Shown one piece after another: positions 1 through 55,217 of a DNA stretch of 64,000 nt. How positions within the stretch are numbered: the first letter of the stretch is position 1; each line of letters starts with the position of its first letter. Below the pieces are notes generated by a model, which ran no database searches, was not told the DNA's origin, and was given only the letters and a program-made list of their open reading frames with translations. A program made the position numbers and the translations under genes. The stretch spans positions 5,022,001-5,086,000 of the forward strand of contig NC_092348.1 of NCBI RefSeq assembly GCF_963676685.1. Direction: 5' to 3'. Source of the stretch: Mytilus edulis. Taxonomy: Eukaryota.

Positions 1-134
1 TATTTTATTTCTTTAGCCGTGGATTATAAAATATCATATGTTGAATATTGTTTTTATTTCGCCCCCAATTTATTATTGTGAAAAAAACTATCTCGCCCCC
101 AAATTTATTATTGTTTAAATCTAATTCTTTGTAG

Positions 135-368
135 GTTCGCTTTCTATCGGATGAAAAAATTAAAGAAATCCACCCCATGATAGTTTGGTCGTTTGCAAAC
201 CGTGAGGCACGAAAGGGGCATTGGATGACATACGCCATTGATGCCGATCGATTCAGGCGACGTATTTTTACAATGGAGAAGATATGTACCCCAATTTTAT
301 CCCAAGACCACAGACAAAGGGTGTATAAAAACTTACGATCTTCAGATATTATAACCCCCAATTCGTAG
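135..368 (+). CDS. Terminal exon of a PPP1R15/GADD34/ICP34.5/DP71L-like PP1 regulatory protein (eIF2alpha phosphatase recruiter)
   Basis: Acceptor TTCTTTGTAG at 125-134 with a CTAAT branch-like motif at 121-125. The frame then reads VRFLSDEKIKEIHPMIVWSFANREARKGHWMTYAIDADRFRRRIFTMEKICTPILSQDHRQRVYKNL. This matches the GADD34 C-terminal pattern [K]VRF...VW...AR.G.W....D..RF.RRI......P.L....R.R. Confidence 0.85.
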   Translation, partial: VRFLSDEKIKEIHPMIVWSFANREARKGHWMTYAIDADRFRRRIFTMEKICTPILSQDHRQRVYKNLRSSDIITPNS

Positions 369-466: not shown

Positions 467-1282
467 ATGCAGGAAGAGCACAGACAGTCCTTAAAGAGAA
501 ATTACGTGCAATTGGTAAAAGAAACACCAACAGATCTTGTTGTTGATCATTTGTACCAGAATGGGATCCTGACAGATGAGATGAGGGAAGAAATTTTACA
601 GAATTCAAACTCTTATTCGAAAACTAGACAACTCATTACAACACTTCAGAGAAGGGGCCCAAGGGCATTTGAATGTTTTTGTACAGCACTGACTGATGAA
701 GGCAAGTCAAGTTTAGTACATCTTTTGAAAGAGTCAAAGATTAAATCAGAAGTATCAAAAGATAGAGCCATGTTACCTATAGGAGGAGATATATTTGTCG
801 TCGTCAATGAATGGCGTGACAAGGTGTTGATTCACATCCGTAAATACGAAAAGAATTCAGCAGACGTGTATGTTCCTACAAAAAAGGGAATCGCACTGGA
901 TCTGAACCAATGGCAGCTATTAGAAATGTATGTTAACGAAATCGAAGAGGCTATAAGTCAGATGATTGATGACGTTACAGGGGTTCCTGAAATGACTTTT
1001 CATCTTGGTAGAGGTGTGTACGTTTCTGTTAACAAAACGTACCCAACAGTTGATGTCAGACAACGCTGGAAGATACCTGAAACCAATCAGATAGTTTCAA
1101 CAAAGAAGGGCATTTCTCTCACATATGACAAGTGGGAAGCGTTGAAAGGGACATTTCCTGACGTCAGAGAGACTGTTCCTGAAATAGAAACTACGACCCC
1201 TTGTATTTTATCAGAAGACCATCAAAACCAAGAAGGGATGCTCATGTGTTCAAACTGTAACCCATTTGCCGAACCTTTATGA
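467..1282 (+). CDS. CARD - PC4 - PC4 fusion protein with C-terminal Cys/His cluster
   Basis: aa 1-88 is a CARD-type death fold (LKRNYVQLV...VVDHLYQNGILT...LITTLQRRGPRAFECFCTAL). Two PC4/Sub1-like repeats follow (VVVNEWRDKVLIHIRKY..PTKKGIAL..QW; VSVN..TVDVRQRW..TKKGISL..KW). The C-terminus carries C..H..CxxC. TATA-like TATAAAT at ~405. Confidence 0.85.
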   Translation: MQEEHRQSLKRNYVQLVKETPTDLVVDHLYQNGILTDEMREEILQNSNSYSKTRQLITTLQRRGPRAFECFCTALTDEGKSSLVHLLKESKIKSEVSKDRAMLPIGGDIFVVVNEWRDKVLIHIRKYEKNSADVYVPTKKGIALDLNQWQLLEMYVNEIEEAISQMIDDVTGVPEMTFHLGRGVYVSVNKTYPTVDVRQRWKIPETNQIVSTKKGISLTYDKWEALKGTFPDVRETVPEIETTTPCILSEDHQNQEGMLMCSNCNPFAEPL

Positions 1283-1352: not shown

Positions 1353-1862
1353 ATGAATTCAAGAGAAATATCGTTCGAGTCTGTAGAACGAAACGAACCT
1401 TTAATGCTTAATATGGGGCGTAAAATGCCTTCTCAGTTAAGTTTGGCGTCCAACATTTCCTCCATGTATGAAAAATATGCAATGCATTTAGACGTGATTA
1501 AATGGACTGGTGTCGTTGTACTTGTTGCTCTGATGTCATCAAGTTTAGCTGTAACCAGTGAAATGTCCCGGAGAGTATCCAATAACCAGACAGACTGTAA
1601 AAGGATTTCGATAGATCATACGAACAGAAATATGATGATGATAAACAATAGGACATGTAGATATTTTGAACAGTTTGATCTCCCGGGAAACTATAAAGTC
1701 ACTGTATGTTCAATCAGAAAACAAGTCTGGGTGGATGTTAAACATTTTAAAAAGTGCGGTATACAGTTCAACCCTAAACAATGGAAATATTGGCAGAGAT
1801 TGAAACCAAATATAAACAGTGCTATGAAAAGAGCTGGTGAAGAACTAAGACAAAAGACATGA
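1353..1862 (+). CDS. Predicted single-pass membrane protein with C-terminal PC4-like domain
   Basis: Hydrophobic segment VIKWTGVVVLVALMSSSLAV, then FDLPGNYKVTVC..KQVWVDVKHF..GIQFNPKQW resembling PC4. TATAAAA at ~1292, AATAAA at ~1906. Confidence 0.6.
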   Translation: MNSREISFESVERNEPLMLNMGRKMPSQLSLASNISSMYEKYAMHLDVIKWTGVVVLVALMSSSLAVTSEMSRRVSNNQTDCKRISIDHTNRNMMMINNRTCRYFEQFDLPGNYKVTVCSIRKQVWVDVKHFKKCGIQFNPKQWKYWQRLKPNINSAMKRAGEELRQKT

Positions 1863-2090: not shown

Positions 2091-3225
2091 ATGAGTTCGT
2101 TAAACTACGAGGACTATTTGCAAAAAATATGGCATGACCCTAAACATGCTGCTGCCTTTACGGGTTCTGACAAATTATATAACATAGTGAAACAAGAAGG
2201 AAAAATTAAAATAGGAAGGCACAAAATAAAGCAATGGCTACAAGACCAGGACACCTATAGTCTATCACGAAATAATGTACACAAATTTAAAAAAAGTCGA
2301 TATGTTGTGGATACAATAGATAGTCTCTGGGAATGGACTTAGCCCAACTAGATAAATTCCAAACCTTCAACTCGGGAAACAAATTCTTATTATTTGTTAT
2401 TGATTGTTTTTCAAAGTTTCTATGGATACAACCAATTGTGGATAAAACCCACACCAGTGTACTAAATGCCTTGAAAACAATTATGAGTGGAAAAAGGAAG
2501 CCTACCTCCATTCGATCAGACTTAGGAAAAGAATTTAAAAACCAATACGTACGGAAGTATCTTTCGAGCCAGGGGGTAAACACGTATTATTCTCTTAACG
2601 ATACGAAATGTGCAATTGTCGAGAGAAGCATTCGAACTGTTAAGTCGATTTTATTCAGGTATTTCAGACACAACCAAACGTATAAATACGTAAATGTCCT
2701 ACAAGATATGGTCAAGGGGTATAACGCAAGACCGCATCGTACACTTGGTGGTTTCTCACCGGTTGATGTGACTAAACGCAATGCAGATGAAGTTCGTTTA
2801 AGTGCGTATCTTGCCCGAAATCCTAAGAAAAGGGAAAAGAAAGTTATTAAAAAAACAGAGATCAAAAGAAGGAAAAAAGCTTTAGGTATAAAATAAATGA
2901 TCTTGTCCGACTTACATTCAAAAGTCATCCATTTCAACGTGGCTATCTACAGAAATGGACAGAGGAGATATTCAAGATTTCTCGTCGGTATTTTCGACAA
3001 AATCTTAGTCTGTATAAGGTCGTTGACCTTCAAAATGACGAAATAGAAGGGACCTTCCAAGATAGTGAAGTTCAGAAAGTACGGAAGGATGGCGATACCA
3101 TATGGAAAATAGAAAAAGTTGTTAAAAGACGACAAAAAAATGGCGTTAAACAGGTATTGGTTCGTTGGCTTGGCTACCCTAAAAAGTTCGACTCATGGGT
3201 TCCCGCTTTGGACATCCAGAAGTAA
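2091..3225 (+). pseudogene. Polinton retroviral-like (DDE) integrase with C-terminal chromodomain-like region; two frameshifts
   Basis: LWE/MDL, VIDCFSK, IRSDLGKEF and CAIVERSIRT motifs. The third frame reads FRYKINDLVRL...WTEEIFKI...WKIEKVVKRR...LVRWLGYPKKFDSWV, with a stop at 3223-3225. Frameshifts near 2333 and ~2880, the latter in an A-rich tract. Confidence 0.9.
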
Positions 3226-3734: not shown

Positions 3735-4217
3735 ATGTCTAAATCTCCTTACATCAGTGATGCATTGGTATGGCAAGAGACCATGAATCAAGCCAAACAT
3801 TTAAAAAAAAACCACAATAATCAATTAGGAAAGGGTTTTCCTAGACGTTACAGCAGACATCGATTTGTCATTCTGAAGAAAAACTTACCTAAAATTGAAA
3901 CCAAGGTGGAGCAAATAGCCCCAACAGTGGCAATCGAAGAACGTGCTGCTTCAGAACTGAAACAACAGAAGAACGACAAAGACCCTCACGTCCTACAGGG
4001 AAAAAAGGCTAAATCTGACGGTATAAAAGGCAGGAAATCAAAACCAAAAAACAGTAAAGTTGGAAAGCTCAAAGAGGCAACAGGTAAAAAACAGAAAGCT
4101 AAAAACAGTGCACCGAGCAAGAAAAAACGGGCTACAAGGAATAAACCTCGGAAAATAGATTTCGAAACTGAACCTTCCATTTTTAATAGAGGAGCAGCAA
4201 AGAAATGGCGTATTTAA
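3735..4217 (+). CDS. Lys/Arg-rich putative virion core / DNA-condensing protein
   Basis: ATG at 3735 just after the penton stop; strongly basic C-terminal half; QLGKG candidate protease site; located between the penton and capsid genes. Confidence 0.6.
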   Translation: MSKSPYISDALVWQETMNQAKHLKKNHNNQLGKGFPRRYSRHRFVILKKNLPKIETKVEQIAPTVAIEERAASELKQQKNDKDPHVLQGKKAKSDGIKGRKSKPKNSKVGKLKEATGKKQKAKNSAPSKKKRATRNKPRKIDFETEPSIFNRGAAKKWRI

Positions 4218-5524
4218 ACGACGAAAATAAAGACATTAGCATTCCGATGGAGTTGGATTTGTTTGAAGAACCAAAAAATCAAGTAGCTATTGATCGGATA
4301 TTTTTTTCGGAAACTAGGCCAATGTCAAACTTTACTTCGCCAGATGTATCTACAGTAGATTTTTTCGTTTCTGGACAAGGTCCCGAATACATGGATTTAA
4401 GACGGAGTAGATTATATGTTCGTGCAAAACTTGTCAAGGCCGATGGAACGGCACTTGACGATACCGATACGTCGAGTATTGTAAATTTGCCTCTTCAAGC
4501 TATGTGGACACAAATGGATGTGTATATGAACAATAAACTAGTGTCTTTAAATACGTCAAACTACCCATGGAAAGCCTATATTAACACTATTCTTACCAGT
4601 GGGACCGATGAACAGAAATCACAACTTCAGTCACAATTGTTCATGAAAGATTCCGGTGATTTAGCGAATACGGATGGAAAAAACGGAGCTAACACTGGAT
4701 TGATTCTTCGTCGAGATTTTATCAAGAACAGTAGAGAATTTGAAATGGAGGGACCGCTGTTTGAAGACATATTTTCACTGGATCGCCATTTAATACAAGG
4801 CGTCGATTTGTATATAAAACTTTACCGTAGTAGCGACCAGTTTTTTGTCATTTCGGGTGAAGACGCCCCCGCCTACAAGTTACAGTTGTTAGATTGTGTT
4901 TATAAGGCATGCAAAATTAAAGTCGATCCTGGCATTATTGTTAACCATATGAAACAGATAGAAACCAAACCAGTCCGTTACTATTTTCAAAGGACAGAAG
5001 TGAAACGAAACACTATCAATAAAGACTCAAGGGAGTTTATTTGGGACAATATGTTCAACATCCGCCCAAGTACTCTGGTCTTAGGGTTGATCTCACAAGA
5101 AAGCGGAAATGGAACGTACGATACTAACCCTTTCTGTTTCAACCATTACAATGCAACTGATGTAGGACTGTACGTAAACGGAGAGAGCGTTCCAGCGAGA
5201 CCGTTAAAACTTGACTTTGGGGATAATAGACAGTATGCAACGGCATACGCTAATCTATTTGAGGTCTGTGAAAAAATGAATAGAGACGCAGGACTCACCA
5301 TTACTAGAGAAGACTATGGAAAAGGGTACACCTTGTATGCTTTTCCATTGGACCCGAAAGGACTTGGAGATGACTATATAAACTTGGTGAAGCATGGGAA
5401 CGTGAGAGCTGAAATAAAATTCAAGACGGGACTACCCTCTGCTGTCACGTGCATAGCGTTTGGAGTATTCGATTCATTTCTAGAGATAGACCATTCCCGA
5501 AACGTTCGCTATATACAGTCATGA
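4205..5524 (+). CDS. Polinton major capsid protein (double jelly-roll)
   Basis: 439 aa with ELDLF..P..Q, YMDL..SRLYV, NYPWKAYI.T.L, NPFCFNHYN and GYTLYAF.L motifs characteristic of Polinton MCP. Confidence 0.92.
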   Translation: MAYLNDENKDISIPMELDLFEEPKNQVAIDRIFFSETRPMSNFTSPDVSTVDFFVSGQGPEYMDLRRSRLYVRAKLVKADGTALDDTDTSSIVNLPLQAMWTQMDVYMNNKLVSLNTSNYPWKAYINTILTSGTDEQKSQLQSQLFMKDSGDLANTDGKNGANTGLILRRDFIKNSREFEMEGPLFEDIFSLDRHLIQGVDLYIKLYRSSDQFFVISGEDAPAYKLQLLDCVYKACKIKVDPGIIVNHMKQIETKPVRYYFQRTEVKRNTINKDSREFIWDNMFNIRPSTLVLGLISQESGNGTYDTNPFCFNHYNATDVGLYVNGESVPARPLKLDFGDNRQYATAYANLFEVCEKMNRDAGLTITREDYGKGYTLYAFPLDPKGLGDDYINLVKHGNVRAEIKFKTGLPSAVTCIAFGVFDSFLEIDHSRNVRYIQS

Positions 5525-5991
5525 ATGGGAACGAACTAGAATGTGCTATCCGATCCAATTCGTGTATACAAATGCAGGTGAAAGGAGTATTTGCAAGGAA
5601 CAATTTACCAACAGGAAAAATACATTACCCCAGTGCCTACATCGTCAACAACCATACGAGTGATCTGCCAGGGGAACATTGGATGGCAATTGTGTTAGAA
5701 AGTAAATCACATGGGGTGTTTTTCGACAGTTTTGGAAAACCACCGGAATTCTATGGAGAAGAATTAAAACATTTTCTGAACTGTTACGTGAAACAATACG
5801 AGTGTTTTAATGTACAAGTGCAACCAAAGTCGTCTTCTCATTGTGGATTGTTTGTGTTAACTTTTCTCATGTTGAATCTATGTTTTAAATATTCATTAAA
5901 TAGTATTGTCAATATTTTCGATTCAAACGTTTATGCTAACGACCATTTTGTATTTAATTTTGTCAACACTTATTATAGTTTGTGTCAATAA
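5521..5991 (+). CDS. Adenain-like cysteine maturation protease
   Basis: PGEHW (catalytic His), FFDSFG (Asp) and QVQ..SSHCG (Gln/Cys). ATG at 5521 overlaps the capsid stop (ATGA). Confidence 0.92.
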   Translation: MNGNELECAIRSNSCIQMQVKGVFARNNLPTGKIHYPSAYIVNNHTSDLPGEHWMAIVLESKSHGVFFDSFGKPPEFYGEELKHFLNCYVKQYECFNVQVQPKSSSHCGLFVLTFLMLNLCFKYSLNSIVNIFDSNVYANDHFVFNFVNTYYSLCQ

Positions 5992-6035
5992 AATATATCA
6001 TGCGTCCATCGTGTTAAATTATCTGTCCTGTGTCA

Positions 6036-6737
6036 AATGCTCTCATACCTTATCCGGACGTCAAGATGACAACTTCTCGCGATATTTTACCTTTTCAAAG
6101 TCCTTGCACTTTCATGATATCGGGAGCGACTCAAAGTGGAAAGACTACATTTGTAATGAAATTACTAAGGCAAGCATCTGTCATGTTTAATACCCCACCG
6201 GTTCAAATAGTTTACTGTTATACGGAGTTTCAACCCATTTTTGACCAAGCTCAACAAACTATACCCAATTTGTTACTGTACGAGGGCTTCCCCACAAGAA
6301 GTGACATTATAGAATGGACCAACCCGGACAAGCACACAGTCCTTGTACTGGATGACATGATGAGATTGATCAGTAAGAGTGACGAGGCTTTACACCTGTC
6401 AACCGCGCTATCACATCACAGGAACTGTTCGGTAATTTTCATAACCCAAAATCTGTTTGAAAAAGGAACACATTTCAGATCGATAAGTTTGAATACCCAT
6501 ATTTTTGTACTTATGGCCAATAACAGAGATAAAAAACAACTTCTCGCCTTTGCAAGTCAGGCATTTCCCGGTGAGACGAAATATTTCAAAGAGGCCTATG
6601 ATAAAGCCATCAGTTATGTTTCAGTTGGGGGATATCTGGTATGCGACTTATCCCCTTATACGGATAAAAAGTACCGCTTGCGTACTTCGATATTTCCAAC
6701 TGATGACGTCACCATTGTATATGCCCCAAAGAAATAA
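6036..6737 (+). CDS. A32-like genome packaging ATPase
   Basis: Walker A GATQSGKT, Walker B LVLDD, and HHRNCSVIFITQN..RSISLNTH. The start codon is uncertain (6030-6066). Confidence 0.92.
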   Translation, partial: NALIPYPDVKMTTSRDILPFQSPCTFMISGATQSGKTTFVMKLLRQASVMFNTPPVQIVYCYTEFQPIFDQAQQTIPNLLLYEGFPTRSDIIEWTNPDKHTVLVLDDMMRLISKSDEALHLSTALSHHRNCSVIFITQNLFEKGTHFRSISLNTHIFVLMANNRDKKQLLAFASQAFPGETKYFKEAYDKAISYVSVGGYLVCDLSPYTDKKYRLRTSIFPTDDVTIVYAPKK

Positions 6738-18189: not shown

Positions 18190-19563
18190 ATGCAGAAATT
18201 TGGGGCTTTTTTAATCCTTTCAAAAAAAAATTAAATTCTCAGACTTCTACAGTTGATCAAGCTTATCCTAAACTTTTTTCAGATAGATTACATATGAAAT
18301 TTTGTAAATTATTACTAGGTTTGGGGAAAAGAGCAACAAACCTTGCCACTCTTTCAGAACTTGGGAGATTTCCTTTACATTTTGATATCACCAAATCTAT
18401 GATCAGATACTGGCACCGGCTTGAGAATTTGGGTTCATCCTTTCCCTTACTAAAAGATGCATATTTAGAGTCAAAGCTATTATTTGAATCAAAAATTCCC
18501 TCTTGGTATGGATCTTTAAACTATTTGCAAAAAAAAATTAATGGGGTTGACAGTCTAACCTTTGCAAGCAACTTTAGATTCAAAATTTTAATTAAAAAGT
18601 TTTTGTATGAGCACTATGAAATACAATGGAGAAACCAAATGCACAATTGTGCTGATGGGAAGCTTTGTAGCTATAGCACTTTTAAGACTCATTTTGGTCT
18701 TGAAAGATACCTTACTATATTACAATCACCTGAGCAGAGGAGAAATTTCACTCGATTGCGTATTTCTTCTCACAGACTAAGAATTGAACAAGGTCGCTAT
18801 CAGGGTACTCTCCGACAAGACAGAATATGTCTCAGGTGCACCTCAAATGAAGTTGATGATGAAAAACATTTTTTATTCTCATGTACATCATCACAAGATA
18901 AGAGAAATTATTTGAATTCCACTATTGACTTACTATGCCCAAACTTTAAGCATTTGATTCCTAGTCAAAAACTGATATGGCTTCTTAATGTAGAGAATCT
19001 TGATATTTTGATATCTGTCTGTGAGTTAATTGATGAAGATAAAATATAACTTTAAAGATAAATATTTAATCAGGCTCTCTGCACTAGGCACAAGGTTGGC
19101 ATGGTGGGGTACAGGACACATCGTACAAGTTCTATTACCTTCTTGTTTGCGATATTATTATTTTTTTTATTAAACTGGTAATATTTTATCTTTTTTGTAA
19201 TTTGTGCACTTTGGCATGTCAATTAGCATTGTCCCTTGGTGCCTCTTGCAGTTGTGTCACTTTAAATAGTACTGACTCCTCTGCACCAGGCACGAGGATG
19301 ACATACCATTTATGTGCAACTTCTTACAATATCTTACCATATCATTAATGTCCCGAAACACATTTTAATATGCACCCACCATGCCATATAGCACCGTCCC
19401 TAGGTGCCTCTTGCAGTTCAGCTAGATATATTTAGCCTACTCACAGTATTCTTTTTTTGTTACTTTCCAGAGGTGTGCCTGAGACAAAGGTTTTATATAT
19501 ATACTAATATGTGATAACTGTTGTTTCTTATTTGTGTTTGTAACTTGTGTTGTTTATTATATT
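18190..19563 (+). mobile_element. 3' part of a non-LTR retrotransposon (ORF2 C-terminus 18294-19049 plus 3' UTR; tail probably resumes at 24263-24357)
   Basis: KFCK.LLG...TN.A...ELGRFPL, RLRISSHRLRIE.GRY and RIC..C..EVDDEKHFLFSC are typical of the post-RT region of LINE ORF2. An AATAAA plus (CTT)n tail lies right after the Gypsy insertion. Confidence 0.8.
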
Positions 19564-19614
19564 TGTTATATTTCTTATTTTGCAAATTCGGAATTTCAAA
19601 ATATATCTATAACA

Positions 19615-21836
19615 TCTAGTACGACATTTGGGTTTGTTTTAGGTCAATTAGATAGTCAAGGTCGAGAGCATGTCATAGCTTATGGAGGTAGAAGTTTGTC
19701 TAGGGCAGAACGAATCTGGTGCACCACAGAACAAGAATGTTTAGCTGTTCTAGAGGGTGTCAAACATTTTCGTGCTTATTTGACTCGTCGATTCAGAATT
19801 TTCACAGATCACAAGGCTCTTAAATATTTGATGGATCAAAAGGTTGCAGTCGGTAAATTAGGTCGTTGGGCTCTTAAATTACAAGACTTCGACTTTGATA
19901 TCGTTCACAAACCAGGTAAAAACAATGAGGTGGCAGATGCTCTCAGCAGACGCACATATACTGAAGTGGCTGATGAAAATAAAACATCGCCAGTGAAAGT
20001 GTTTGTTTCAAATGCAAATGAAAATGAGTTTCTGTCAGATACAATTGAGGTTAATGCTTGTGAGACAGATCTAGAGGTAGACAATAAAGGAGACGAGGAC
20101 TTGGAGAGTGTAGAGCTCGAATTATTTTATGGAGACTATACACTTCTTGCTCCTCTAGATCCTGAAGTCGTCAATAGTGAGTTATTGGACATTCCTGCTG
20201 TAAGTCAGTTACAACAAGTTGACCCAGATTTTCAGGATATGTTTAATTACTTGCAAAATGACGTTTTACCTCAAAGTGAAAAGGTTCGACAAAAAGTTCT
20301 AGCAGAATCTCAAGATTACTCGGTTTGTGATGGTGTTTTGTATAAATGGTTTCAAAAGAGGTTTAAAACGAGTCCAGATGAAAAGTACATTAAACAATTA
20401 TGTCTTCCATTAGCTCTCAGACGTCATGCTTTGCTAGCTTATCATGACTTGAATTATGGTGGTGCACACTTAGGATTGGACAGGGTTTTGGCTGCTTTGA
20501 GACAAAAATATTTTTGGCCAAAAATGCACCAAACAGTCAAAGACCATGTTCTTTCTTGTGACAGGTGTCAACGAATTAAGGTTGACCATACACGCAAAAA
20601 TCCACCTTTAAATCCTTTGCCAGTGGTAGGTCCATTTGATCGATGGCATATGGATTTCTTAAAGCTGAGCAAGACAAACAAAGGTGAAACATACTTGCTC
20701 GTTTTGGTTGATAGTTGTAGTAAGTGGGTTGAAGCATTTGCTATGAAAACACAAGAGGCTTCTGAAGTTGCAAAGGTCTTGTTCAAAGAGGTTTTCTCTA
20801 GATTTGGCGCAGCAAGGTTTTTGGTTAGTGATCGTGGAAAAAGCTTCATGAATAACTTAGTTCTGTCGTTATGTGAGATATTTGATGTTACAAGATATCA
20901 TACTAGCTCGTACCATCCTCAAACAAATGGGTTAGTAGAAAGGTGCAACTCAACTCTGATAAAGTCTTTCAGAGCATACTGTGATAAGGCTCAAAATAAT
21001 TGGCCCGATAAATTACCCGGAATTTTAATGGCTTTACGCAATTCTCCTTCAACTCAATCAACTGAGTTTTCTCCCTTTCATTTGCTGTTTGGTAGAGAAA
21101 TGAATCTACCTTTTGACACTTCTGTTACACCTAAACAGAATTTGTCAGCAGATGCCAAGCTTCAAATGGAAGAAGTTCTATCAAATCTAAAGATCACACA
21201 AGATCTTGCCACTAAAAATATGTTAGAAAAACAGTTAAAATCTAAAGAGCGATACGACCGAAATTCAAAAATTCCACAATTTAAAGTAAGGGATTTAGTT
21301 TTACTTCGGCAACATGTGGTTCCCGTCGGTCGCTCACCGAAATTGTAGATAAGTACAAAGGGCCTTATTACATAACTGAGTTGGGACCAAATTACACATA
21401 CAAATTGAGAATGTGCAGCACTAATAAAGAGGTAAAATCGATGATCAATGCAAAAGAAATATTCCTTTACAAGGATCCAAGAGATCATCAGCTGCAACCC
21501 AATGAGGTGGTACAAAATGTAGCTTATGATACTGATAGGGTAGATCAGCATGATCAAGGTGATGAGAATGTGCCTCAAGCACAAAATAGGGAGAATGAAA
21601 CCACTGATGGTAATGATGATCAGATAGAAGATCATCAGTTTTATAAAGCGGAAAAACTTTTGAAGTTAAAGCGCTTACAAGGTAGACGACATTTCCTTGT
21701 AAAATGGGCGGACGGCTCAAAACCCACATGGGAACCAGAGGAATATGTTTCAGAACATTTAATCAGAGTATATTTTAGCACACATACAAATACAGGGACT
21801 AAACGAAAGAGAAAAACATGCATACGGCAAAACTAG
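19615..21836 (+). pseudogene. Gypsy pol fragment: RNase H, integrase, chromodomain; frameshift at ~21345
   Basis: IAYGGRSL, FTDHKAL, WHMDF, LVSDRG and YHPQTNGLVER. After the frameshift it reads YKGPYYI and FYKAEKLL...FLVKW..PTWEPEEYV. Confidence 0.88.
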
Positions 21837-25395: not shown

Positions 25396-25935
25396 TAGGT
25401 ATTTTTTTCAATTTACACTATACACGTTTCAATAATACAAAAAAAAATATCTTAAACAATAGTGATGGTTACATGACAATTTATTAATTTTATAATCCAA
25501 AAACTACGTAAAAATTAAATACTGATGCCATAGTTATAGTTTCCATCGATGGTTAAAATCTTGCAGGTAGGCTTGGGGTGACATTCACTTCCACACGGTA
25601 GCATAGCTTTTTTGCATATAAGAAATTTGTGCATGATCTTTTTCATTTACACCTTTTGTGCTATGAAAAGTGAAAAGCTAGCCTTTTTGCAGCTGCGTAC
25701 AGTGATACCGAGGTCTTTGGCCATTCTGATGTCTACGTTGTTTTTAAGAAGCTCTAGATCTCAAATATCGTAAAATGACTGCAATAAATCATATTCACAG
25801 GACAACTTAAATATACAATGTTACTTTCCAGTGACTTCTTGTGTAACAGTTCATTAAGATTTTTTTAGTCGACGTATTGCCATTCACTCGTAATAACAAA
25901 TCGGTAGTGACCATCGGTATATAATAAGTGTTTAC

Positions 25936-28900
25936 TATGGAACGCCATGACTGTCTTCTGATGTTGATTGTTTAATATGTTCGGTGCTTTATGCATTATG
26001 TTCAGTAGTATGTATATTATGTTCAGTAGATATCCTATTATGTTCAGTAGTTATTACATTATGTTCAGTAGTTATTACATTATGTTTAGTAGTTTTTACA
26101 TTATATTCGGTGCTTTGGTTATTATGTTCAGTAGTTTCATTATTATATGCAGTGGTATTTAAATTATGTTCGATACTTCTGACGTTATATTCAGTACATT
26201 TTTCATTATGTTCAGTACTTTCGACATTATGTTCAGTAGATTCAATATTATTTGCAGTACATTATGTAATACGTTCAGTAGTCCCGCTTTCTTTATATTC
26301 AGTAGATTATTAATTATGTTCAGTAAAAGCATCTGTATTATATTCGGTTCGTTCAACTTTATGTTCAGTGGTTTTATCATTATGATGATGTAGTAAAAGT
26401 CGGGAAGTCAATAACGGAAATTGTCGGAAAAAAACGAAGGCGGATATTTTTGACGGACGTTTTATTCATGAACACCTGTACGTGATTGAATTAAAATGGA
26501 AGAAATGGAAGCAGTTTTAAATCGGTGTGGTTTACGTTCCCAAGTTGGCATTTTTCACAAGAAAAAAATAACTCCTGACTCAATTTGTAAGTTGTCGCTA
26601 CAAGATTTCGCATATTTAGGTATGACTGACAGGAGAAAAATAATGGAATTAAGAATAGCTTGTGTTTATTTCAGTAGCAATATTTTGACTGAGTAATAAC
26701 AAGTTTTTCATTCCCAAAGAAACACTGGAATCCCTGCTTGAAATCGATTTAACTGTTTTAAAAATATTCCCTGTGGACAACCCCCCCTTTATTTGGTGCT
26801 CTCTATTTTCAACCCTCGAATTAAGCTTTCCAATCTTATTAAAATTAAAACCTTGCTTTCTAACCAATCTGTTCATGCACCGGACCGGCAACTTTCTTTA
26901 TTTAATACGAAAATCTAAAGTGCCGTTATACACATACATGTTGTTTGCTTGGAGTATACGCCTGCAAAGAAAGAAATAGCCCAAGTCCGAAGGCACAAAT
27001 AAGAAAAAAAAGTTGTATGGCAAAGGGTGCCGGGGTAAATCTCTGTTTTCAAAATATACATGAAATATTTGCCACTGCCCCTTTTTTCTTCTATGAATTC
27101 TAATCCTGAGTTTTCTATCTGTTACATGCCAAGAAATCCGAGCAAAAAATTCCGGTCGACCTCCTACGGCACCCATTAGTATTTAAAGATTTGATTTCAT
27201 TCAACAAATTAATTTAGGACCTCCATGTACGTGTCATGTAGAACACAGCTATTTACCGAATGGTCAATATTAATCTTCCATGTAATTTGCTCTATGTGAT
27301 GTTTGCAGAATTTCAACGGAGGTAATTTCTTGGCATGATCAATTGTGTGTTTACCCTCCCCTTTTCTCCTTTGATATAAAGCGTTCCAATGAATAACAAA
27401 TCTACAGTAATCCGAAAAAATTAAAGGCGACAATAAAAATACATGTAAATCTTGTAAAATAATCAAAATGTTTCTGTGTATTTGGTTTTGGTTTGTTCTT
27501 CAAAATACCACTTAAGGCCAGTGTCTTGCCTGAATCAGAGAAGCTTGCTAGTGAAGACGTGCCCTTACTCTAAGATCGATTATGAATAATAAGAATTTAT
27601 GAACCTCAAGAAATCTGACGTACCCATAATTGACAATCCTGACACGAAATTATCACTTAACATTTATCCGTTTCAGATCCGTTCATCATCCATTTTATCC
27701 GTTATACGTCCGGTAGAAGTCCGTTTCACATTCGTTCAACATCAATTTTATCCGTTAAACCACAAGCAAATGCCCCCAAAGGACAGTGTCTGGACTGAAT
27801 AAAAGCTGCTTGATTGTGAAGACGTGACCTTACTCTAAGATCGATTATGAATAATAAGAATTCATGAATCTTAAGAAAGGCTAATTGGCATTTCAGACGC
27901 GAAATTTTCAATTGGCATTTATCCGTGTAAGATCCGTTCATCATCCGTTTAATCCGTTATACGTCCGGTAGAAGTCCGTTTCACATTCGTTCAACATCTG
28001 TTTTATCCGTTAGACGTCCGTTAGACGTCCGTTAGAAGTCCGTTGGTGAATTTATCTGCCAGACCTCAAACGGATGTATAACGGACACGTTACGAATACA
28101 AAACGGAAGTGAAACGGACAAGTTCCGTACAAAACAGACGCCTACCGGACGTTCAACAGACATTTTATCCAATGGACGTCAGTTCAACGTTTTGAACATG
28201 CTCATACGGACGTCGACGGATTAAACGTACGCTAAACTGACATGCAACGGATATGGACGGACGTCTAACAGATAAGAACGGACGTCTAGCGGACATGAAC
28301 GGATTGAAAAAAGTTATCCGTTAGGCATTTGTTCGAGCTATCTTAGTCAAAATATTGCTGCTGAAATGAACACAAGCTATTCTTAATTCCATTATTTTTC
28401 TCCTGTCGTTCATACGTGTACCTAAATATGCGAAATCATGTAGCGACAACTTACAAATAAAGTCAGGAGTTATTTTTCCTGGTGAAAAATGCCAACTTGG
28501 AAACGTAAACCACACCGATTTAAAACTGCTTCCATTTCTTTCATTTTCATTTAATCATGTAAAGGTGTTCATGAATTAAACGTCCGTCAAAAATATCCTT
28601 GTTCGTTTTTTTCCGACAATTTCCGTTATTGACTTCCCGACTTTTACTACATCATCATAATGATACAACCACTTTTACTACATCATCATAATGATAAAAC
28701 CACTGAACATAAAGTTGAACGAACCGAATATAATACAGATGCTTTTACTGAACATAATGAATAATCTACTGAATATAAAGAAAGCGGGACTGCTGAAGGT
28801 ATTACATGATGTGCTGCAAATAATATTGAATCTACTGAACATAATGTCGAAAGTACTGAACATAATGAAAAATGTACTGAATATAACGTCAGAAGTACCG

Positions 28901-29177
28901 AACATAATTAAAATAACACTGCATATAACAATGAAACTACTGAACATAATAACTAAAGCACCGAATATAATGTAAAAACTACTGAACATAATGTAATAAC
29001 TACTGAACATAATGTAATAACTACTGAACATAATGTAATAACTACTGAACATAATGTAATAACTACTGAACATAATAGGATATCTACTGAACATAATATA
29101 CATACTACTGAACATAATGCATAAAGCACCAAACATATTAAATAATCAACATCAGAAGACAGTCATGGCGTTCCATA
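25936..29177. mobile_element. Non-autonomous IS3EU-type fold-back DNA transposon
   Basis: Termini TATGGAACGCCATG / CATGGCGTTCCATA and an exact 6-bp TSD GTTTAC (25930-25935, 29178-29183). The ~750-830 bp inverted arms contain 21-bp tandem repeats (ATTATGTTCAGTAGTTATTAC). Confidence 0.85.
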
Positions 29178-30574
29178 GTTTACTATATATTTGACATTTA
29201 AGTATAATTAATTATGTGAAACTAATTACTTCTTATTTTTATTTAGCTTATCTTTTTATTATAATATAATAATAAAATTACCTACATGTATATGATAGCG
29301 GTTTTTTTTAATGAACGGTCATACATTGTACCATATGAAGCGTTTAGAAGTATGAAAAGTAAACTGTAATAGAATGTTAATTACCCCGACCATACTCGTA
29401 CGGTCAGACCATTTTGAAAAATGTTGTGTGTGCTGTTTTTAGACCCTTTTACAACGAAATTTGTTTTACATGCACACGTATAAAAATGGCGGTTTTTATC
29501 CAACGATCATAGGTTTGAACGTAGTTTTCAATTTAGACTCGTTTATATTTTTTCGTTTGGGCTTGTATCATATTTTCCCTCCGGTTTATATGATCCGTTC
29601 ATCCTATATTGACTCTTAAAATTCAAGAGTCTATCTAAAAATGAGGGTACTTTTTATATGGCCTTCTAAATACCGTTTCGATCCCTAACATCACTGTCAT
29701 CACTGAAGAGACATTTATTGTCGAAATCCGGATCTGGTGTACTAAAAAAATATTGTCACCGTATGTTTGTGGCATAACATCATGGCCACAAGTTATTTTT
29801 TTTCTGTTTAGTATTAAATTTATATTAAGATCCATTTTATTACATCTTGTGATCAATTTTATTTGGCAATCGCCAATGGCAGTCAGCAGGGTTAAAGAAC
29901 ATCAGTTGTTCGACCTGTTAGTCAAAATTAATGCGTTTTGTTTAAATATACTTTTTCACTTTTTTGGTCTTTTGGACAAATGTTGTTTGTGCTGTTTTTA
30001 GACCCTTCTACAACGAAATTTGTTTTACATGCACACGTATAAAAATTGCGGTTTGAACGTAGTTTTCAATTTAGACTCGTTTATATGTATATTTGCCCTA
30101 CCGTTGTCAAATTTGAAATATTATACAAACTTGGATCGGTTAGGACATTTTTGATTTTTGTTTGTTTGAGGACTGCCCTCAATGCAGTTATAACATCTAA
30201 ACTGTCACAACTTTTGGAAAATTAGAGTTGTGCCAGTTCACATCGGAAATAACTATTTTCATTTGGCATATCTTTGCGCCGTGTTTGGAAATTTTAAAAT
30301 TGTATCAGCGTCTGTGGTGTTCGCTTAAATTGTATAAATTTCGAGATTTAGAAAAAGTTTCTCAGTTTGAATATTTTGACATGATTCATTTGACATAGTG
30401 CTATTATTGAAGATGGATATCTGTTATCCGAAATATCTAATATTTGTTCATTTTATAGTTATTGTACCCTTTTTGACTTGTTATATATTATATTTTGTAG
30501 TGTACAGAATCATATCACATGATCCATCGCCCTGTAAGATTGATCGTTGACTATTTATTCAGTCATTTAATATA

Positions 30575-38118: not shown

Positions 38119-40824
38119 TTGTAAATAGATTGCGAGGAAACCTATCAGACAGCAACCAATTTATAATTATGTAGTTTACTATAATACATAATAGACTAGA
38201 GTTCAACAAACGACATCCCTTTTCGGCACCAGACGAGCTCCCAGTTATGGAAGCGCATATGGTACACCCCTTGTAAAGTTATTTTGTTGCTAATAAGTCG
38301 GAATTATTAGTCAAGTTGTGTGTTATAAGCTGGAATCTTATCATCAAGTTGAAGTCAAGTTGTCGGAATGATGTAGAAAAATTGTTTTACAATGTCGACT
38401 TGCTGATATAAATATAATGGCATAGTAATAAGAAGTCGACACGTTGAATTCAACTTATTAATTGATTAAGTCGACAACTTGTTTATTTGATATTAAATCA
38501 TCATGTTGAAGTCAACTTGTCGGAATGATGTAGATAAAGTTTTTATTACAATGTCCACTTGCTAATAATATTAATTAAGTCAACTTGCTTATTTGATGTT
38601 AACTTTATTCGTTCTCACGGTCAGATTCCCACGGTCCGTATTTTACTTCCTGTGCTGACACATTAAAGATGGAGATCGACAGCAACAACATCAGCGGGAG
38701 CAGTGGAAACGAGTCATAAGTAAGTTTATATTTGTTTTCTTTGGAGACTTAGCGTTATATTTTAATATGAAGCAATACTGAACACAAAATGAAAAAGATC
38801 ATAGGGAGAAAAAACGTTATTGTTTGAATGAAAGGGCATTGAAAAGTTACAGTTTAACGTGACCTGTGATAAGATCTAGAGTAAGACGTCTGCTATTATT
38901 AAAGATATATTCTACTTAAAGGGTTTCACCCCTCTCCCCACCATCCCATCACAAGTACACTACCCGTTCTGTACGACTGTCAATGAAAAATGGAAAAAAA
39001 CTGAATGGTCCCTCCCTTTCGCCTTTCAGAGTCCTTTGTAGATCAATCTCCATGACTCATTTAATTCATAACAGCTAAGCAAAAAAAAATTAGTAATCTA
39101 AACAAATAATTTGATTCACAACTAGCAGGGTGGATCTTGTCATTTATAAGGGTTGGGTATGGGGATCCTAGCCCACGATAAAGGGGAGTTCCAACTATAT
39201 GTCCCCATTCAATTGCATTGATCTTCCAAATAAATGTAAAAAAGGGTTCCAACCCCGGACCCCCTGGATTCGCCACTAATGCCAGTTAGAAAAGCATGAT
39301 GCGAAACGAAATATGTGTTCACTTTATTTTGATATTGACCGATTAGAAGATTTTGCTATTCATTAAACATTTCAATTGAAGAAATATCGTCTATTTCAGC
39401 TGCTTGGTCACCTGCCCGTCTAATAAATGGTCAAAGACTATGGAATCAAGCAATATTTTAAAGGTAATGTTGAAAGTAAAACAAAGAAATATGTTGCTGA
39501 CATCGAACATCAAATCAACACACTTTGGCTTAAAAACAAACAAAATTTGTCAAAACTTTCTTGTATAGTTTTTATAATGTTTTTCTTCATTTAGACTAAT
39601 CAGCTCCATCTTCGTGGAAAGTATGAAAAAGGTTTAATACTGTATTGTGATTTATTTTTTGTAAAAACTGCACCTTAAACGGCCAAAAATTACAAAAAAT
39701 AAAGGATTACCAAAATAGGAAAAATGAGCACACATTTACACGGCTCTAGCGAAAAATATAGTGAACCATGATATAAAGTTTTCTTCATATTTTGTCTAGC
39801 ATGCGCAGTAAAAGCGAGACATGTAGGTACGGTTTTACAGGCGACGGTGAATATATGGCGTTAACATTGCAACCAAGTTTGCTGTTCATGTCTTTATCTC
39901 GTGAAGCATAACGAGTAAGGTTCTTATATTTAGGATGCAGATTTCCTACATATTGTTCTTGCCAGTCAGTCATGTGCCATTTATCTTTGACCTATTTTAA
40001 ATGCTTGAATGACCCTGAAGAACTCTAATAGTCAATTTTGCAACCGAGTTTACTGCTTAAGTCCATATCTCAAGAAATAGAAGTCTAAGGTTGATAATAT
40101 TTGGCATTAACGTCTCCAACTACAAGGGGATGATAGTCTGAAGTGTAATTTTAGCTTTGACTTAGGTTGATGATATTAGACAAGGAGGTTCCCCACTACC
40201 AGGGGATGTCATTTTGATACCTGTAAATTGATCTTGGCCTTGTTTTTATGGTTGATTGACTTTGACAATATGCGACCAAATTTTATAAATTAGTCAATGA
40301 TTGATAAAGAGCTAGATATCATGTTTAAGGAGGCATGATGTTACAACAAATTTAGCAAAAATTGAAACATATTTTTTTCATAACAAATTTTATTCATTAG
40401 GTACACTATTCGTTGTTTCTTTAAGATATGGTACAAAAATCAACCAAACAAAATAAATTCGTTTAGGCATCAGATGACTTTTAAAATGTTTATTCGATTG
40501 CAATATGCTGGAAGAAGATATGTCCTCTTGTTTGAAAATGAAAACATGTTCAAATGTAAAAATATCATATGCTTATACCTGATACCTATAACGGGTAAAT
40601 TTAAAAATGAAATATGTTATAAATATCGCCATGAAGATTTATTTTGGATTGTCAAAACTTACTGTGTATTTTTCCATTTCGTATTCCATTAAATGTGAAG
40701 GCGCAGCGCATTTCCTAGTAGTTTTATAGTAAGCTGATGACGTCACAGTGAACACCCTATTTAGATATCAAGCCAATCGGATTTTTCATTTTATCATTAC
40801 ATCATACGTGTAATTTCTATCTTT

Positions 40825-41295
40825 ATGTTTCAGTTACTCTGTTGTCTCCTTTGTGTTGCTGATCATGACGTTACAGGAATACCTTACCCAGGCGATGATG
40901 CTTCTGTGCCTGAACTAGTCCAATACTATCATCAATTATGCTACACGTCCCTTCAAATATGTGGATTTCTCTTGTTTGTTCACGGAACATTCATAAGTTG
41001 TTCCATGTTAAAAAGACTTAAGAGAAGATTAAATATCAGACGGCGTAACAACCAGTCGCCATTACCTACAGTTGTAAGGACAATCCTGGCTTTACACCGT
41101 AATGGCCTGTCTAATGTTGGATACAGGTATATGTGGAGGACTCTGAACATAGGCTTTGGACTTTGCGTCACACAATCAAGAGCAAGGCTTTGCTTAAGAA
41201 CAAGAGACCAACAGGATGTACTTAACAGATCGCATCGAGTTCTTCGAAGGAGAGTGTACTACAATAGAGGACCAAACTATCTGATTCATGTCGAT
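40825..41295 (+). pseudogene. Truncated inverted copy of the transposase 5' half
   Basis: Nearly identical to the first ~157 codons of ORF 52665-51415 and breaks at the first catalytic HVD. Confidence 0.9.
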
Positions 41296-51414: not shown

Positions 51415-52665
51415 TCAATTCGGTAAGGCAGCAATCAATGTCCGAAACAATAGCTCTGCGTCATCGTATGATGTGATGATGGGAAACTGATCTCGTCTGT
51501 TTCCAGTAAGCAACTCGACAATGTTAATAAATTCATTGCTACAGCCATGCTCTGGAAAGTTCTCTGTATATTCCTCTATGAGATTGTCAATTGTTTGTAA
51601 GTTACATGGTAAAGGAAATGAACAGTCTCTTCCACCAAAGATCTCTGGCTGATAGTATAACATATTTGGAATACCACTTGGTGTTACAACTTCAGCACGT
51701 TGTCTTCTTATTCTATGTGAGTTCCAGTTCTCAGCAAACATGTCCAATTGATGTTGGATAACGGAGAGGAAACAAAATCGAACACATTCTTTATGTACTG
51801 GACACGATACATTAAGAAGTCCAGTGTCTTGGAAATCCTGGAAACGGTTTCTCCAAAACTGGGTGAAACTCGTTTTTAGTGTACCCCAAAGCCTTTCTAT
51901 TCTTTGATTTGCAACAGATCTGCCGACGAGAAAAGAATTTTGTCCCGACATTTCATCGTTTTGATTATGTCGCAACGATCTTTGTAAATCCCTCATTATG
52001 ACGTTTTCTGTTCCTGCATCCGATCGAACAACCCTTGGAAGCATCTTTCTTTGTTTGATCCAATTAAGATACCAGTAACCGACATATCTGGGGTTATTGT
52101 TGGAGGGACTTGCTATCAACCATAAAAGTTTACGAGAGTATCCATCGATTGCCCCATGTATAGCTATGCCGTAGGGTTTTAATTTATCGTAACCATCGAC
52201 ATGAATCAGATAGTTTGGTCCTCTATTGTAGTACACTCTCCTTCGAAGAACTCGATGCGATCTGTTAAGTACACCCTGTTGGTCTATTGTTCTTAAGCAA
52301 AGCCTTGCTCTTGATTGTGTGACGCAAAGTCCAAAGCCTATGTTCAGAGTCCTCCACATATACCTGTATCCAACATTAGACAGGCCATTACGGTGTAAAG
52401 CCAGGATTGTCCTTACAACTGTAGGTAATGGCGACTGGTTGTTACGCCGTCTGATATTTAATCTTCTCTTAAGTCTTTTTAACATGGAACAACTTATGAA
52501 TGTTCCGTGAACAAACAAGAGAAATCCACATATTTGAAGGGACGTGTAGCATAATTGATGATAGTATTGGACTAGTTCAGGCACAGAAGCATCATCGCCT
52601 GGGTAAGGTATTCCTGTAACGTCATGATCAGCAACACAAAGGAGACAACAGAGTAACTGAAACAT
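51415..52665 (-). CDS. IS3EU/IS481-like integrase-core transposase (intact frame)
   Basis: HVDGYDKLKPYG..IHGAIDGYSR, VRSDAGTEN, SVANQRIERLW and WNSHRIR. The 5' end may be spliced (TTTCAG acceptor just after the annotated ATG). Confidence 0.9.
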   Translation of the reverse strand: MFQLLCCLLCVADHDVTGIPYPGDDASVPELVQYYHQLCYTSLQICGFLLFVHGTFISCSMLKRLKRRLNIRRRNNQSPLPTVVRTILALHRNGLSNVGYRYMWRTLNIGFGLCVTQSRARLCLRTIDQQGVLNRSHRVLRRRVYYNRGPNYLIHVDGYDKLKPYGIAIHGAIDGYSRKLLWLIASPSNNNPRYVGYWYLNWIKQRKMLPRVVRSDAGTENVIMRDLQRSLRHNQNDEMSGQNSFLVGRSVANQRIERLWGTLKTSFTQFWRNRFQDFQDTGLLNVSCPVHKECVRFCFLSVIQHQLDMFAENWNSHRIRRQRAEVVTPSGIPNMLYYQPEIFGGRDCSFPLPCNLQTIDNLIEEYTENFPEHGCSNEFINIVELLTGNRRDQFPIITSYDDAELLFRTLIAALPN

Positions 52666-53832
52666 AAAGATAGAAATTACACGTATGATGTAATGATAAA
52701 ATGAAAAATCCGATTGGCTTGATATCTAAATAGGGTGTTCACTGTGACGTCATCAGCTTACTATAAAACTACTAGGAAATGCGCTGCGCCTTCACATTTA
52801 ATGGAATACGAAATGGAAAAATACACAGTAAGTTTTGACAATCCAAAATAAATCTTCATGGCGATATTTATAACATATTTCATTTTTACCCGTTATAGGT
52901 ATCAGGTATAAGCATATGATATTTTTACATTTGAACATGTTTTCATTTTCAAACAAGAGGACATATCTTCTTCCAGCATATTGCAATCGAATAAACATTT
53001 TAAAAGTCATCTGATGCCTAAACGAATTTATTTTGTTTGGTTGATTTTTGTACCATATCTTAAAGAAACAACGAATAGTGTACCTAATGAATAAAATTTG
53101 TTATGAAAAAAATATGTTTCAATTTTTGCTAAATTTGTTGTAACATCATGCCTCCTTAAACATGATATCTAGTTCTTTATCAATCATTGACTAATTTATA
53201 AAATTTGGTCGCATATTGTCAAAGTCAATCAACCATAAAAACAAGGCCAAGATCAAATTACAGGTATCAAAATGACATCCCCTGGTAGTGGGGAACCTCC
53301 TTGTCTAATATCATCAACCTAAGTCAAAGCTAAAATTACACTTCAGACTATCATCCCCTTGTAGTTGGAGACGTTAATGCCAAATATTATCAACCTTAGA
53401 CTTCTATTTCTTGAGATATGGACTTAAGCAGTAAACTCGGTTGCAAAATTGACTATTAGAGTTCTTCAGGGTCATTCAAGCATTTAAAATAGGTCAAAGA
53501 TAAATGGCACATGACTGACTGGCAAGAACAATATGTAGGAAATCTGCATCCTAAATATAAGAACCTTACTCGTTATGCTTCACGAGATAAAGACATGAAC
53601 AGCAAACTTGGTTGCAATGTTAACGCCATATATTCACCGTCGCCTGTAAAACCGTACCTACATGTCTCGCTTTTACTGCGCATGCTAGACAAAATATGAA
53701 GAAAACTTTATATCATGGTTCACTATATTTTTCGCTAGAGCCGTGTAAATGTGTGCTCATTTTTCCTATTTTGGTAATCCTTTATTTTTTGTAATTTTTG
53801 GCCGTTTAAGGTGCAGTTTTTACAAAAAATAA

Positions 53833-54335
53833 TATTAGTTACATAGTGTGTTAGTGACCTAATATGATATATACAGGGTCAGTAAATTCCATATGGGGTG
53901 AGAGCGAAGCTCGAATCCCATATGGAATTTACTGACCCTGTATATATCATATTAGGTCACTAGCACACTATGTAACGAATTTATCTTACCGACTATCTTT
54001 ATGTGTTGAATTTAGACTAAAGTTGTCTTATTTGCTTTCATAACACATCTCCTTATTTCTGTATTAAAGTGTTCAGGTGTTCAATTTTAAGAACCTACTT
54101 CAATTGATATGCACTAAAAAAACTAAAGTAAACGATAGATATTTATAATAAACAACCTTGATATAACAATATTAAAATTTGAAATAATCAAACAGTGCCT
54201 AAGTCGCAAATTCACTACTAACCTAATATTGAAATAAGCCCCGCCTCCCTACTAACCTAATATTGAATATACACGGTCTCCACGAGGTCGCTTTTAACCA
54301 ATAATATTCCTAAAAATGTATAGGAGGTAAGATAA
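53833..54335. mobile_element. Hairpin-headed non-autonomous element, no TSD (copy 1)
   Basis: Absent from the left arm at ~39652. Starts TATTAGTTACATAGTGTG, has a ~140-bp palindrome centred on GCGAAGC, and ends GGTAAGATAA. Confidence 0.85.
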
Positions 54336-55217
54336 ATCACAATACAGTATTAAACCTTTTTCATACTTTCCACGAAGATGGAGCTGATTAGTCTAAATGA
54401 AGAAAAACATTATAAAAACTATACAAGAAAGTTTTGACAAATTTTGTTTGTTTTTAAGCCAAAGTGTGTTGATTTGATGTTCGATGTCAGCAACATATTT
54501 CTTTGTTTTACTTTCAACATTACCTTTAAAATATTGCTTGATTCCATAGTCTTTGACCATTTATTAGACGGGCAGGTGACCAAGCAGCTGAAATAGACGA
54601 TATTTCTTCAATTGAAATGTTTAATGAATAGCAAAATCTTCTAATCGGTCAATATCAAAATAAAGTGAACACATATTTCGTTTCGCATCATGCTTTTCTA
54701 CCTGGCATTAGTGGCGAATCCAGGGGGTCCGGGGTTTGGAACCCTTTTTTACATTTATTTGGAAGATCAATGCAATTGAATGGGGACATATAGTTGGAAC
54801 TCCCCTTTATCGTGGGCTAGGATCCCCATACCCGACCCTTATAAATGACAAGATCCACCCTGCTAGTTGTGAATCAAATTATTTGTTTAGATTACTAATT
54901 TTTTTTTTTTTGCTCAGCTGTTATGAATTAAATGAGTCATGGAGATTGATCTACAAAGGACTCTGAAAGGCGAAAGGGAGGGACCATTCAGTTTTTTTCC
55001 ATTTTTCATTGACAGTCGTACAGAACGGGTAGTGTACTTGTGATGGGATGGTGGGGAGAGGGGTGAAACCCTTTAAGTAGAATATATCTTTAATAATAGC
55101 AGACGTCTTACTCTAGATCTTATCACAGGTCACGTTAAACTGTAACTTTTCAATGCCCTTTCATTCAAACAATAACGTTTTTTCTCCCTATGATCTTTTT
55201 CATTTTGTGTTCAGTAT

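Follow-up and report, generated by a model that had tools for sequence, protein, structure and literature searches.

A two-exon gene with a PPP1R15 core inside the left terminal repeat of a mussel Polinton clade

The Polinton and the predicted gene at its left end

The stretch of DNA analysed, called the window throughout, comprises 64,000 nucleotides of the Mytilus edulis genome (G000:C5:5022001-5086000). Its left part is occupied by a Polinton, in which Pfam searches recognized the core set of these elements, namely protein-primed DNA polymerase B (pPolB), rve integrase, adenoviral protease, and A32-like ATPase (Table 1). The capsid candidate is mostly 83-100% conserved inside the clade to which this copy belongs. 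The intron-like segments of the polymerase gene are located at window positions 9649-9423 and 9167-9027 on the minus strand. One pPolB intron is common to the four subfamilies examined, one was detected only in the window's copy and subfamily C10, and another only in the C12 family; the element therefore appears to depend on splicing and to use the spliceosome. Vertebrate Maverick genes, including core genes, were reported as intronless (PMC8097293).

Table 1. Features of the window's Polinton and the host PPP1R15 gene; positions without a contig label refer to the window
Feature	Position	Strand	Remarks
Left TIR	C5:5021491-5021581 (L001:857-947)		91 bp; start 510 bp before the window
TATA-like box	L001:1099		between left TIR and exon 1
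Predicted exon 1	C5:5021788-5021820 (L001:1154-1186)		upstream of the window; ATG and 10 codons, the last two K-R
Predicted phase-0 GT-AG intron, 3' part	1..134	+	whole intron 314 nt, G000:C5:5021821-5022134
Exon 2	135..368	+	77 codons; PPP1R15 core: V-x-F, Phi-Phi, R-x-G-x-W, D-x-x-R-F-x-x-R-I, C-terminal helix
CARD and two PC4 domains	467..1282	+	own TATA-like box at 405
Conserved ORF	1353..1862	+	no Pfam family
rve integrase and chromodomain	2091..3225	+	broken up over three frames in the window's copy
Probable major capsid protein	4190..5524	+	weak double-jelly-roll match PF21738, E 0.029, below cut-off
Adenovirus-type cysteine protease	5413..5991	+	PF00770
A32-like packaging ATPase	6018..6737	+	PF04665, weak; >100 relatives in the genome
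Protein-primed DNA polymerase B	7689..12760	-	PF03175; interrupted by two GT-AG intron-like segments
Right TIR	15908..15998	-
Host PPP1R15 (GADD34/CReP-like)	G000:C7:23562490-23565063	minus	631 aa

The terminal motif of the element occurs once in the window (15973-15993, minus strand; no match in any of 100 shuffles). Extension of the contig to the left, as proposed in an earlier note on this DNA, uncovered the matching end, and both ends form a perfect 91-bp inverted repeat with AGT-type termini. Since the left TIR lies upstream of the window and pairs with the right TIR, exon 2 is located inside the virus-like element, as that note had supposed from the missing terminal sequence between exon and CARD gene. 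The 6-bp flanks of this copy are mismatched, a 100-N scaffold gap (L020:8018-8117) is situated 974 bp to the left of its left end, and the same 974 bp recur without a difference beside a Polinton copy on contig C7. The left end may be an assembly mis-join, and the conclusions drawn here therefore rest on sister copies with matching target-site duplications, in which the gene occupies the corresponding position. About 1.75 kb near position 13490 are missing from the window's copy.

To the right of the Polinton (15999-21836), ORFs were noted in which about 890 bp are duplicated internally. They gave no Pfam match; by a motif they resemble a Penelope-type reverse transcriptase. A Gypsy-type RNase H-integrase-chromodomain fragment is present at 19483-21836. 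The remainder of the window contains a fold-back element with 21-bp sub-repeats (25934-26693 versus 28342-29179), a large interrupted inverted duplication of 97-100% identity (38246-41295 versus 52195-56375), and a satellite of 30-bp units at the window end (61423-64000).

The first gene inside the left TIR was predicted to consist of two exons. Exon 1 is followed by the donor GTGAGT, and a pyrimidine-rich tract precedes the acceptor AG, whose last base is position 134, exactly where the earlier note had placed it; from there the frame is open for 77 codons and starts with V-R-F. The first ATG of exon 2 is located at 177, and an ORF beginning there misses VRF, as had been pointed out. Translation mainly from this ATG was rejected because the product would be devoid of RVxF and exon 1 is conserved. 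The basic residue, K or R, that was expected from an exon further upstream is supplied by the 11-codon exon 1, which ends in K-R at phase 0. Only if spliced, exons 1 and 2 are predicted to specify a protein of 88 aa, in which K-R followed by V-R-F constitutes a complete RVxF. The proposed membership in the PPP1R15 family was borne out by the profile PF10488 (PP1c_bdg), which matched exon 2 with 27.0 bits (E 4.4e-6; cut-off 26.1) and the corresponding exons of subfamilies C10 and C11 with 28.0 and 28.7 bits. The best three PDB matches of exon 2 were 7nzm_C (PPP1R15A, E 5.9e-5), 4v0u_E (PPP1R15B, 8.1e-5), and 9nb9_B (DP71L, 7.2e-4). A chance ORF was rejected as an explanation for exon 2.

The start codon of the CARD gene (467) is found 98 bp past the exon 2 stop. 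Each of the three left-end genes has a TATA-like box ahead of it, and the nearest AATAAA downstream of the group is located at 1907, an arrangement which suggests nested transcripts with a common 3' end. Conservation of the CARD-PC4 gene amounts to 73-100% in the clade and to about 32% when a sister Polinton family is compared; the gene product could possibly be an apoptosis or innate-signalling decoy joined to a ssDNA-binding protein.

Distribution in the genome and selection

Repeated whole-genome searches, one of which recovered 12 places, revealed the PPP1R15-core exon at 16 genomic places, 15 in 13 Polinton copies and one in the host PPP1R15 gene. An exon of the host gene merely adjoining the virus was rejected, the host gene being located on contig C7; the assumption of the earlier note that the exon is cargo of the element agrees with its presence in sister copies, apart from the single host gene. 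In the Polinton places, the ATG is situated 290-470 bp inside the element end, and several different terminal sequences and several subfamilies are represented. All 15 have an exon 1 of 11 codons followed by a GT donor, with introns of 90-353 nt. Both exons are open in ten of these places and broken in five, the latter belonging to elements with core genes likewise broken or missing. In the ten intact places exon 1 ends in K-R, K-T, or R-T, and the position of the basic residue before V-x-F stays compatible with RVxF. Target-site duplications of 6 bp match at both ends in 8 of 13 elements; the other five are the window's copy, one partial tandem duplicate, and three whose second end was not found within the sequence retrieved.

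The exon lies directly upstream of CARD-PC4 at each of the 14 places where the clade has this gene in full length. Two more clade members have truncated left ends and for that reason lack the PPP1R15-core gene. In one mussel Polinton clade, a two-exon miniature of PPP1R15 is the first gene inside the left TIR. Eight other Polinton families (ATPase 40-47% identical) gave no profile match below E 0.6 in a sample covering 10 kb on either side of the ATPase at 8 loci of 150 scored ATPase matches, with ends located for some; one of these families is the sister family carrying CARD-PC4.

Two elements, G000:C2080:13087-30056 and C7:19276577-19293982, are giant palindromes of the left half with inverted arms of 8-8.5 kb. 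In both, the gene is present at each end, target-site duplications match, and the polymerase is almost absent. Palindromic arms together with matching duplications indicate that they integrated as head-to-head forms, and they are possibly products of a template switch during replication.

Comparisons between subfamilies revealed dN/dS values for exon 2 of 0.23 (window versus C10; 66 codons, Fisher p 0.0004) and 0.20 (C10 versus C11), while synonymous sites were saturated between window and C11. For exon 1, values of 0.11-0.25 were obtained from 11 codons only. CARD-PC4 showed 0.21 (window versus C10); the comparison with C11 was left out, the frames being unaligned across an indel. With dN/dS of about 0.2 between subfamilies, the gene was therefore kept as coding sequence during divergence of the elements.

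Proposed function of the predicted protein

In the alignments, I-H of the Polinton exon corresponds to V-H of GADD34 and R-K-G-H-W to R-Q-G-P-W, with H13, R26, and W30 invariant in seven of seven rows. On the substrate side, W, A, D, R, F, R, and I of the helix align with PPP1R15A/B and DP71L, and W, A, D, R-F, and R-I are invariant or nearly so over subfamilies and host. The consensus facing eIF2alpha is W-x3-A-x-D-x-x-R-F-x-x-R-I. The residue following D in the Polinton helix is A, not R/G. Also retained are the second LSAVL leucine and H-R. Using DP71L residue numbers taken from the PDB chain alignment, the equivalent of L61 is retained (L55, invariant), that of L57 is C in window and C10, I in C11, and L in the host, and that of D27 is apparently lost. 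GADD34 docks PP1 via KVRF, the Phi-Phi pair (V564-H565), and a downstream Arg-rich segment (PMC10743859). In vitro, eIF2alpha is dephosphorylated by a 70-residue core together with PP1 and G-actin; in cells, this core is weaker than the full protein (PMC10998612). DP71L consists of the core only and suppresses all four kinases (10.1101/2025.02.28.640897), the motif of its short form is KHVRF (PMC10807198), and it depends on V16, F18, and the LSAVL leucines, L57 being the more important (PMC5346070).

From these similarities we infer that the Polinton product would bind PP1, act on eIF2alpha, and play a role in antiviral counter-defence. With a probability of roughly 0.7, the gene specifies a spliced PP1-recruiting eIF2alpha phosphatase subunit serving the element's own gene expression. 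Host Pol II and spliceosome would make the mRNA, and the basic residue from exon 1 would complete RVxF. The protein could then hold PP1 by RVxF, by Phi-Phi, and by the arginine behind them, and could present phospho-eIF2alpha together with G-actin, as DP71L does. In this way, mRNAs for polymerase, integrase, and capsid would still be translated once PERK- or PKR-like kinases become active in the course of element replication. PP1-family exons were found in the mussel genome, PERK is described in oysters (PMC9680061), and an oyster PKR-like kinase is tied to antiviral responses (PMC4883820). Since PPP1R15 proteins reduced to the core work at a point below all four kinases, several stresses and kinases are compatible with the sequence. 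No exon junction appeared in four sequencing runs. In two contig sets, whose nature is uncertain and for which RNA is a guess, contigs cross TIR, intron, and acceptor unspliced; two raw RNA runs under another label yielded 4 and 0 reads, too few to inform splicing.

The same biochemistry could also be used differently, as an aid to mobilization coupled to stress (heat, hypoxia, ER stress) in germ line or embryo, or as an offset of the ER load caused by the element's own proteins. This possibility, regarded as rather unlikely, overlaps in mechanism with the phosphatase-subunit reading. It fits the action of core-only proteins below all four kinases (10.1101/2025.02.28.640897) and the fact that every copy seen is integrated, but the named viral counterparts serve translation in infection (PMC10807198), and the adjoining CARD gene may mark the left end as a cluster for interaction with the host.

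An improbable alternative is a protein binding PP1 and being a poor eIF2alpha phosphatase subunit, which would redirect or sequester PP1 or act as a decoy. DP71L LSAVL mutants lose activity, keep PP1 binding, and may sequester PP1 (PMC5346070), the L57 equivalent is C in two subfamilies, and C-terminal fragments of mammalian R15, which lack other regions, bound PP1 non-selectively in one system (PMC8633803). Against a pure sponge stand the near-invariant W, A, D, R-F, and R-I, which it would not need.

Origin of the gene and comparison with known systems

In the host gene, an acidic, Ser-rich exon of 561 codons, whose final residues are lysines, is separated by a phase-0 intron of 680 nt from a last exon starting with V-H-F; a public 631-aa Mytilus edulis protein corresponds exactly to this exon join. 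Its last exon is about 47% identical to Polinton exon 2, and codon boundary and phase of its last intron inside RVxF are the same as in the Polinton gene. The statement in the earlier note of a host intron at the equivalent position thus proved correct.

In trees, the Polinton rows grouped with P0002 (and P0048) at a support of 100/98, and this group joined Mytilus and Mytilus-like host genes with 97/96 and, in a 48-row quick tree including 33 of 142 new matches, with 89. Genes from ark shell, beetle, and fish fell apart from this grouping. Among alternative trees, based on about 74 columns, placement with insect-like genes was rejected (p-AU 0.049) and a grouping of the hosts without the Polinton rows was retained (p-AU 0.081); the placement of the donor appears borderline resolved. 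One tree was calculated without P0030, the AU-tested tree without the long rows P0027, P0029, P0031, and P0032 and without L061. Among the insect-like rows, P0022, P0023, and P0025 are named beetles, and for P0018 and P0003 'insect' is a guess from similarity. An acceptor-like Q before V-x-F is present in 11 of 39 short database proteins, P0048 included. Since these look like read-through last exons, they suggest that the intron at V-x-F is old and widespread in animals.

The clade ancestor would have acquired the 3' portion of the host gene, namely the end of the large exon, the last intron, and the last exon, losing about 550 N-terminal residues and obtaining an ATG 11 codons upstream of the donor. 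Capture at the DNA level from a mytilid host is the simplest reading, and a likely one. It had been put forward in the earlier note, and the common boundary and phase of the intron speak for it; what weakens it is the gain of pPolB introns by the same lineage, which leaves independent intron gain as a small rival. Retained and lost introns both occur in viral captures: ovine herpesvirus 2 vIL-10 keeps host introns, and the poxvirus captures of one study were all intronless and LINE-1 mediated (10.1101/2020.10.26.355610).

That small rival, an intronless capture via RNA followed by chance gain of an intron at the host position, is slightly less probable still than the PP1 sponge. Besides the gain and loss of pPolB introns, it could draw on exon 1, which is unlike the end of the large host exon beyond the basic residues, and on P0002 from the same tree clade, which reads K-T-I-H-F unbroken, such that intronless forms may exist. 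Boundary and phase, however, match exactly among about 260 possible positions, and the acceptor-like Q in clade member P0048 and ten more short proteins fits an old intron. Passive, unexpressed cargo, a hitch-hiking host fragment devoid of function, is very improbable: five of 15 places are broken and no spliced transcript appeared in the four runs, but dN/dS of about 0.2 at near-saturated synonymous sites, as in CARD-PC4 (0.21), and start exon, donor, and acceptor retained despite a more than threefold change in intron length have largely refuted it.

Relatives were also sought outside this genome. In Mytilus galloprovincialis, a gene model with the name PPP1R15B/DP71L joins an exon 2 of C11 type to upstream sequence unrelated to it, and two short ENA proteins without context fall into the Polinton tree group. 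A protein database queried with the single exon returned no candidate; queried with alignments it gave three near-length and 19 longer matches. A representative search yielded 1822 clusters at E <=0.001, and among the 142 new clusters listed, 39 are <=115 aa. About 18 of the listed short proteins have a basic residue before V-x-F in an unbroken frame and correspond to DP71L-like stand-alone cores, some of which may be Polinton-borne. In JGI metagenomes, one relative, L061 (2362 bp), was found among 480 candidates. It contains an intronless diverged PPP1R15-like ORF beside a PC4-like ORF (822-1130 and 1741-2061), both with Pfam matches below cut-off, and AGT-type repeats at the contig ends; core Polinton genes were not detected in these 2.4 kb. 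Scans of IMG/VR mostly gave no match, apart from one match without a locus and one 190-kb viral contig, which was rejected as a Polinton because of its size. In P0032 (Logan, 230 aa), a C-terminus like that of PPP1R15 is joined to an N-terminal domain that is unrelated and of no Pfam family; the protein presumably resembles uncharacterised insect Polinton proteins. Tentatively, and with more doubt than confidence, these relatives could be seen as parts of one picture, in which an active viral phase of animal Polintons trips eIF2alpha kinases and the PPP1R15 core was captured more than once, L061 and part of the many stand-alone cores of 69-115 aa from unannotated assemblies included, the mussel gene being a DNA-level capture with its intron still in place. 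If true, this would be a widespread, overlooked immune-evasion module of Polintons.

The gene bears on the question whether animal Polintons are genuine viruses that encounter host defence or transposons in which capsid genes are mere leftovers: a DP71L/ICP34.5-type gene under purifying selection pays only if element proteins are needed during translation shut-down. It also offers direct assays, phospho-eIF2alpha and PP1 pull-down. It is likely a clear case of a host gene captured as DNA and trimmed to the same minimal core at which herpes- and asfarviruses arrived on their own. The number of such cargo genes is probably underestimated because ORF callers miss the gene and a public model mis-splices the exon. 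Herpes-, asfar-, and other viruses are known to carry PPP1R15 mimics, and ICP34.5 of HSV-2 is also spliced. A PPP1R15/DP71L/GADD34 gene in a Polinton was not encountered among the literature matches listed, although Rojas 2015 and the 391-protein Table II of 10.1101/2025.02.28.640897 could include mussel or Polinton-borne entries not recognized as such; the earlier note, whose author knew of no such cargo in Polintons, agrees with this. Look-up of terms in four Polinton papers (PMC8502044, PMC8097293, PMC11131425, 10.64898/2026.10.13.758929) gave no phosphatase cargo. Viral PPP1R15 mimics and intron-bearing Maverick cargo are each known; their combination was not met with in these literature searches.

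The closest counterparts are the short form of ASFV DP71L (70-72 aa) and the C-terminal domain of HSV-1 ICP34.5, which, like the Polinton gene, represent the minimal core (RVxF, linker, W..D..RF..RI helix) in a viral context; 9nb9_B of DP71L matches the Polinton exon over residues 15-58. Whereas these reside in large DNA viruses, the carrier of the mussel gene is an integrating element of 15-19 kb. Unlike DP71L, the Polinton gene has two exons with RVxF split by the intron, the L57 equivalent is C in the window's subfamily, and the sequence is more similar to PPP1R15 of the mussel host (about 47%) than to the viral protein. With the host gene it shares the intron boundary and phase and a basic residue before V-x-F, K in the host, provided by the upstream exon; it differs in the missing 561-codon exon, in its own start exon, and in being multi-copy and mobile. 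Ovine herpesvirus 2 vIL-10 is likewise an intron-retaining host capture read as DNA-level, of another gene in another class of virus. Nematode Mavericks carry intron-bearing host cargo (wasp proteases, krma kinases) between left TIR and integrase (10.1101/2022.07.12.499685). The mussel gene is host-derived cargo in the same sense, but while the cargo region of nematode Mavericks is described as of low conservation and exchanged, the mussel gene is fixed, trimmed, and under purifying selection across subfamilies, with a recognizable, presumed anti-shut-off function.
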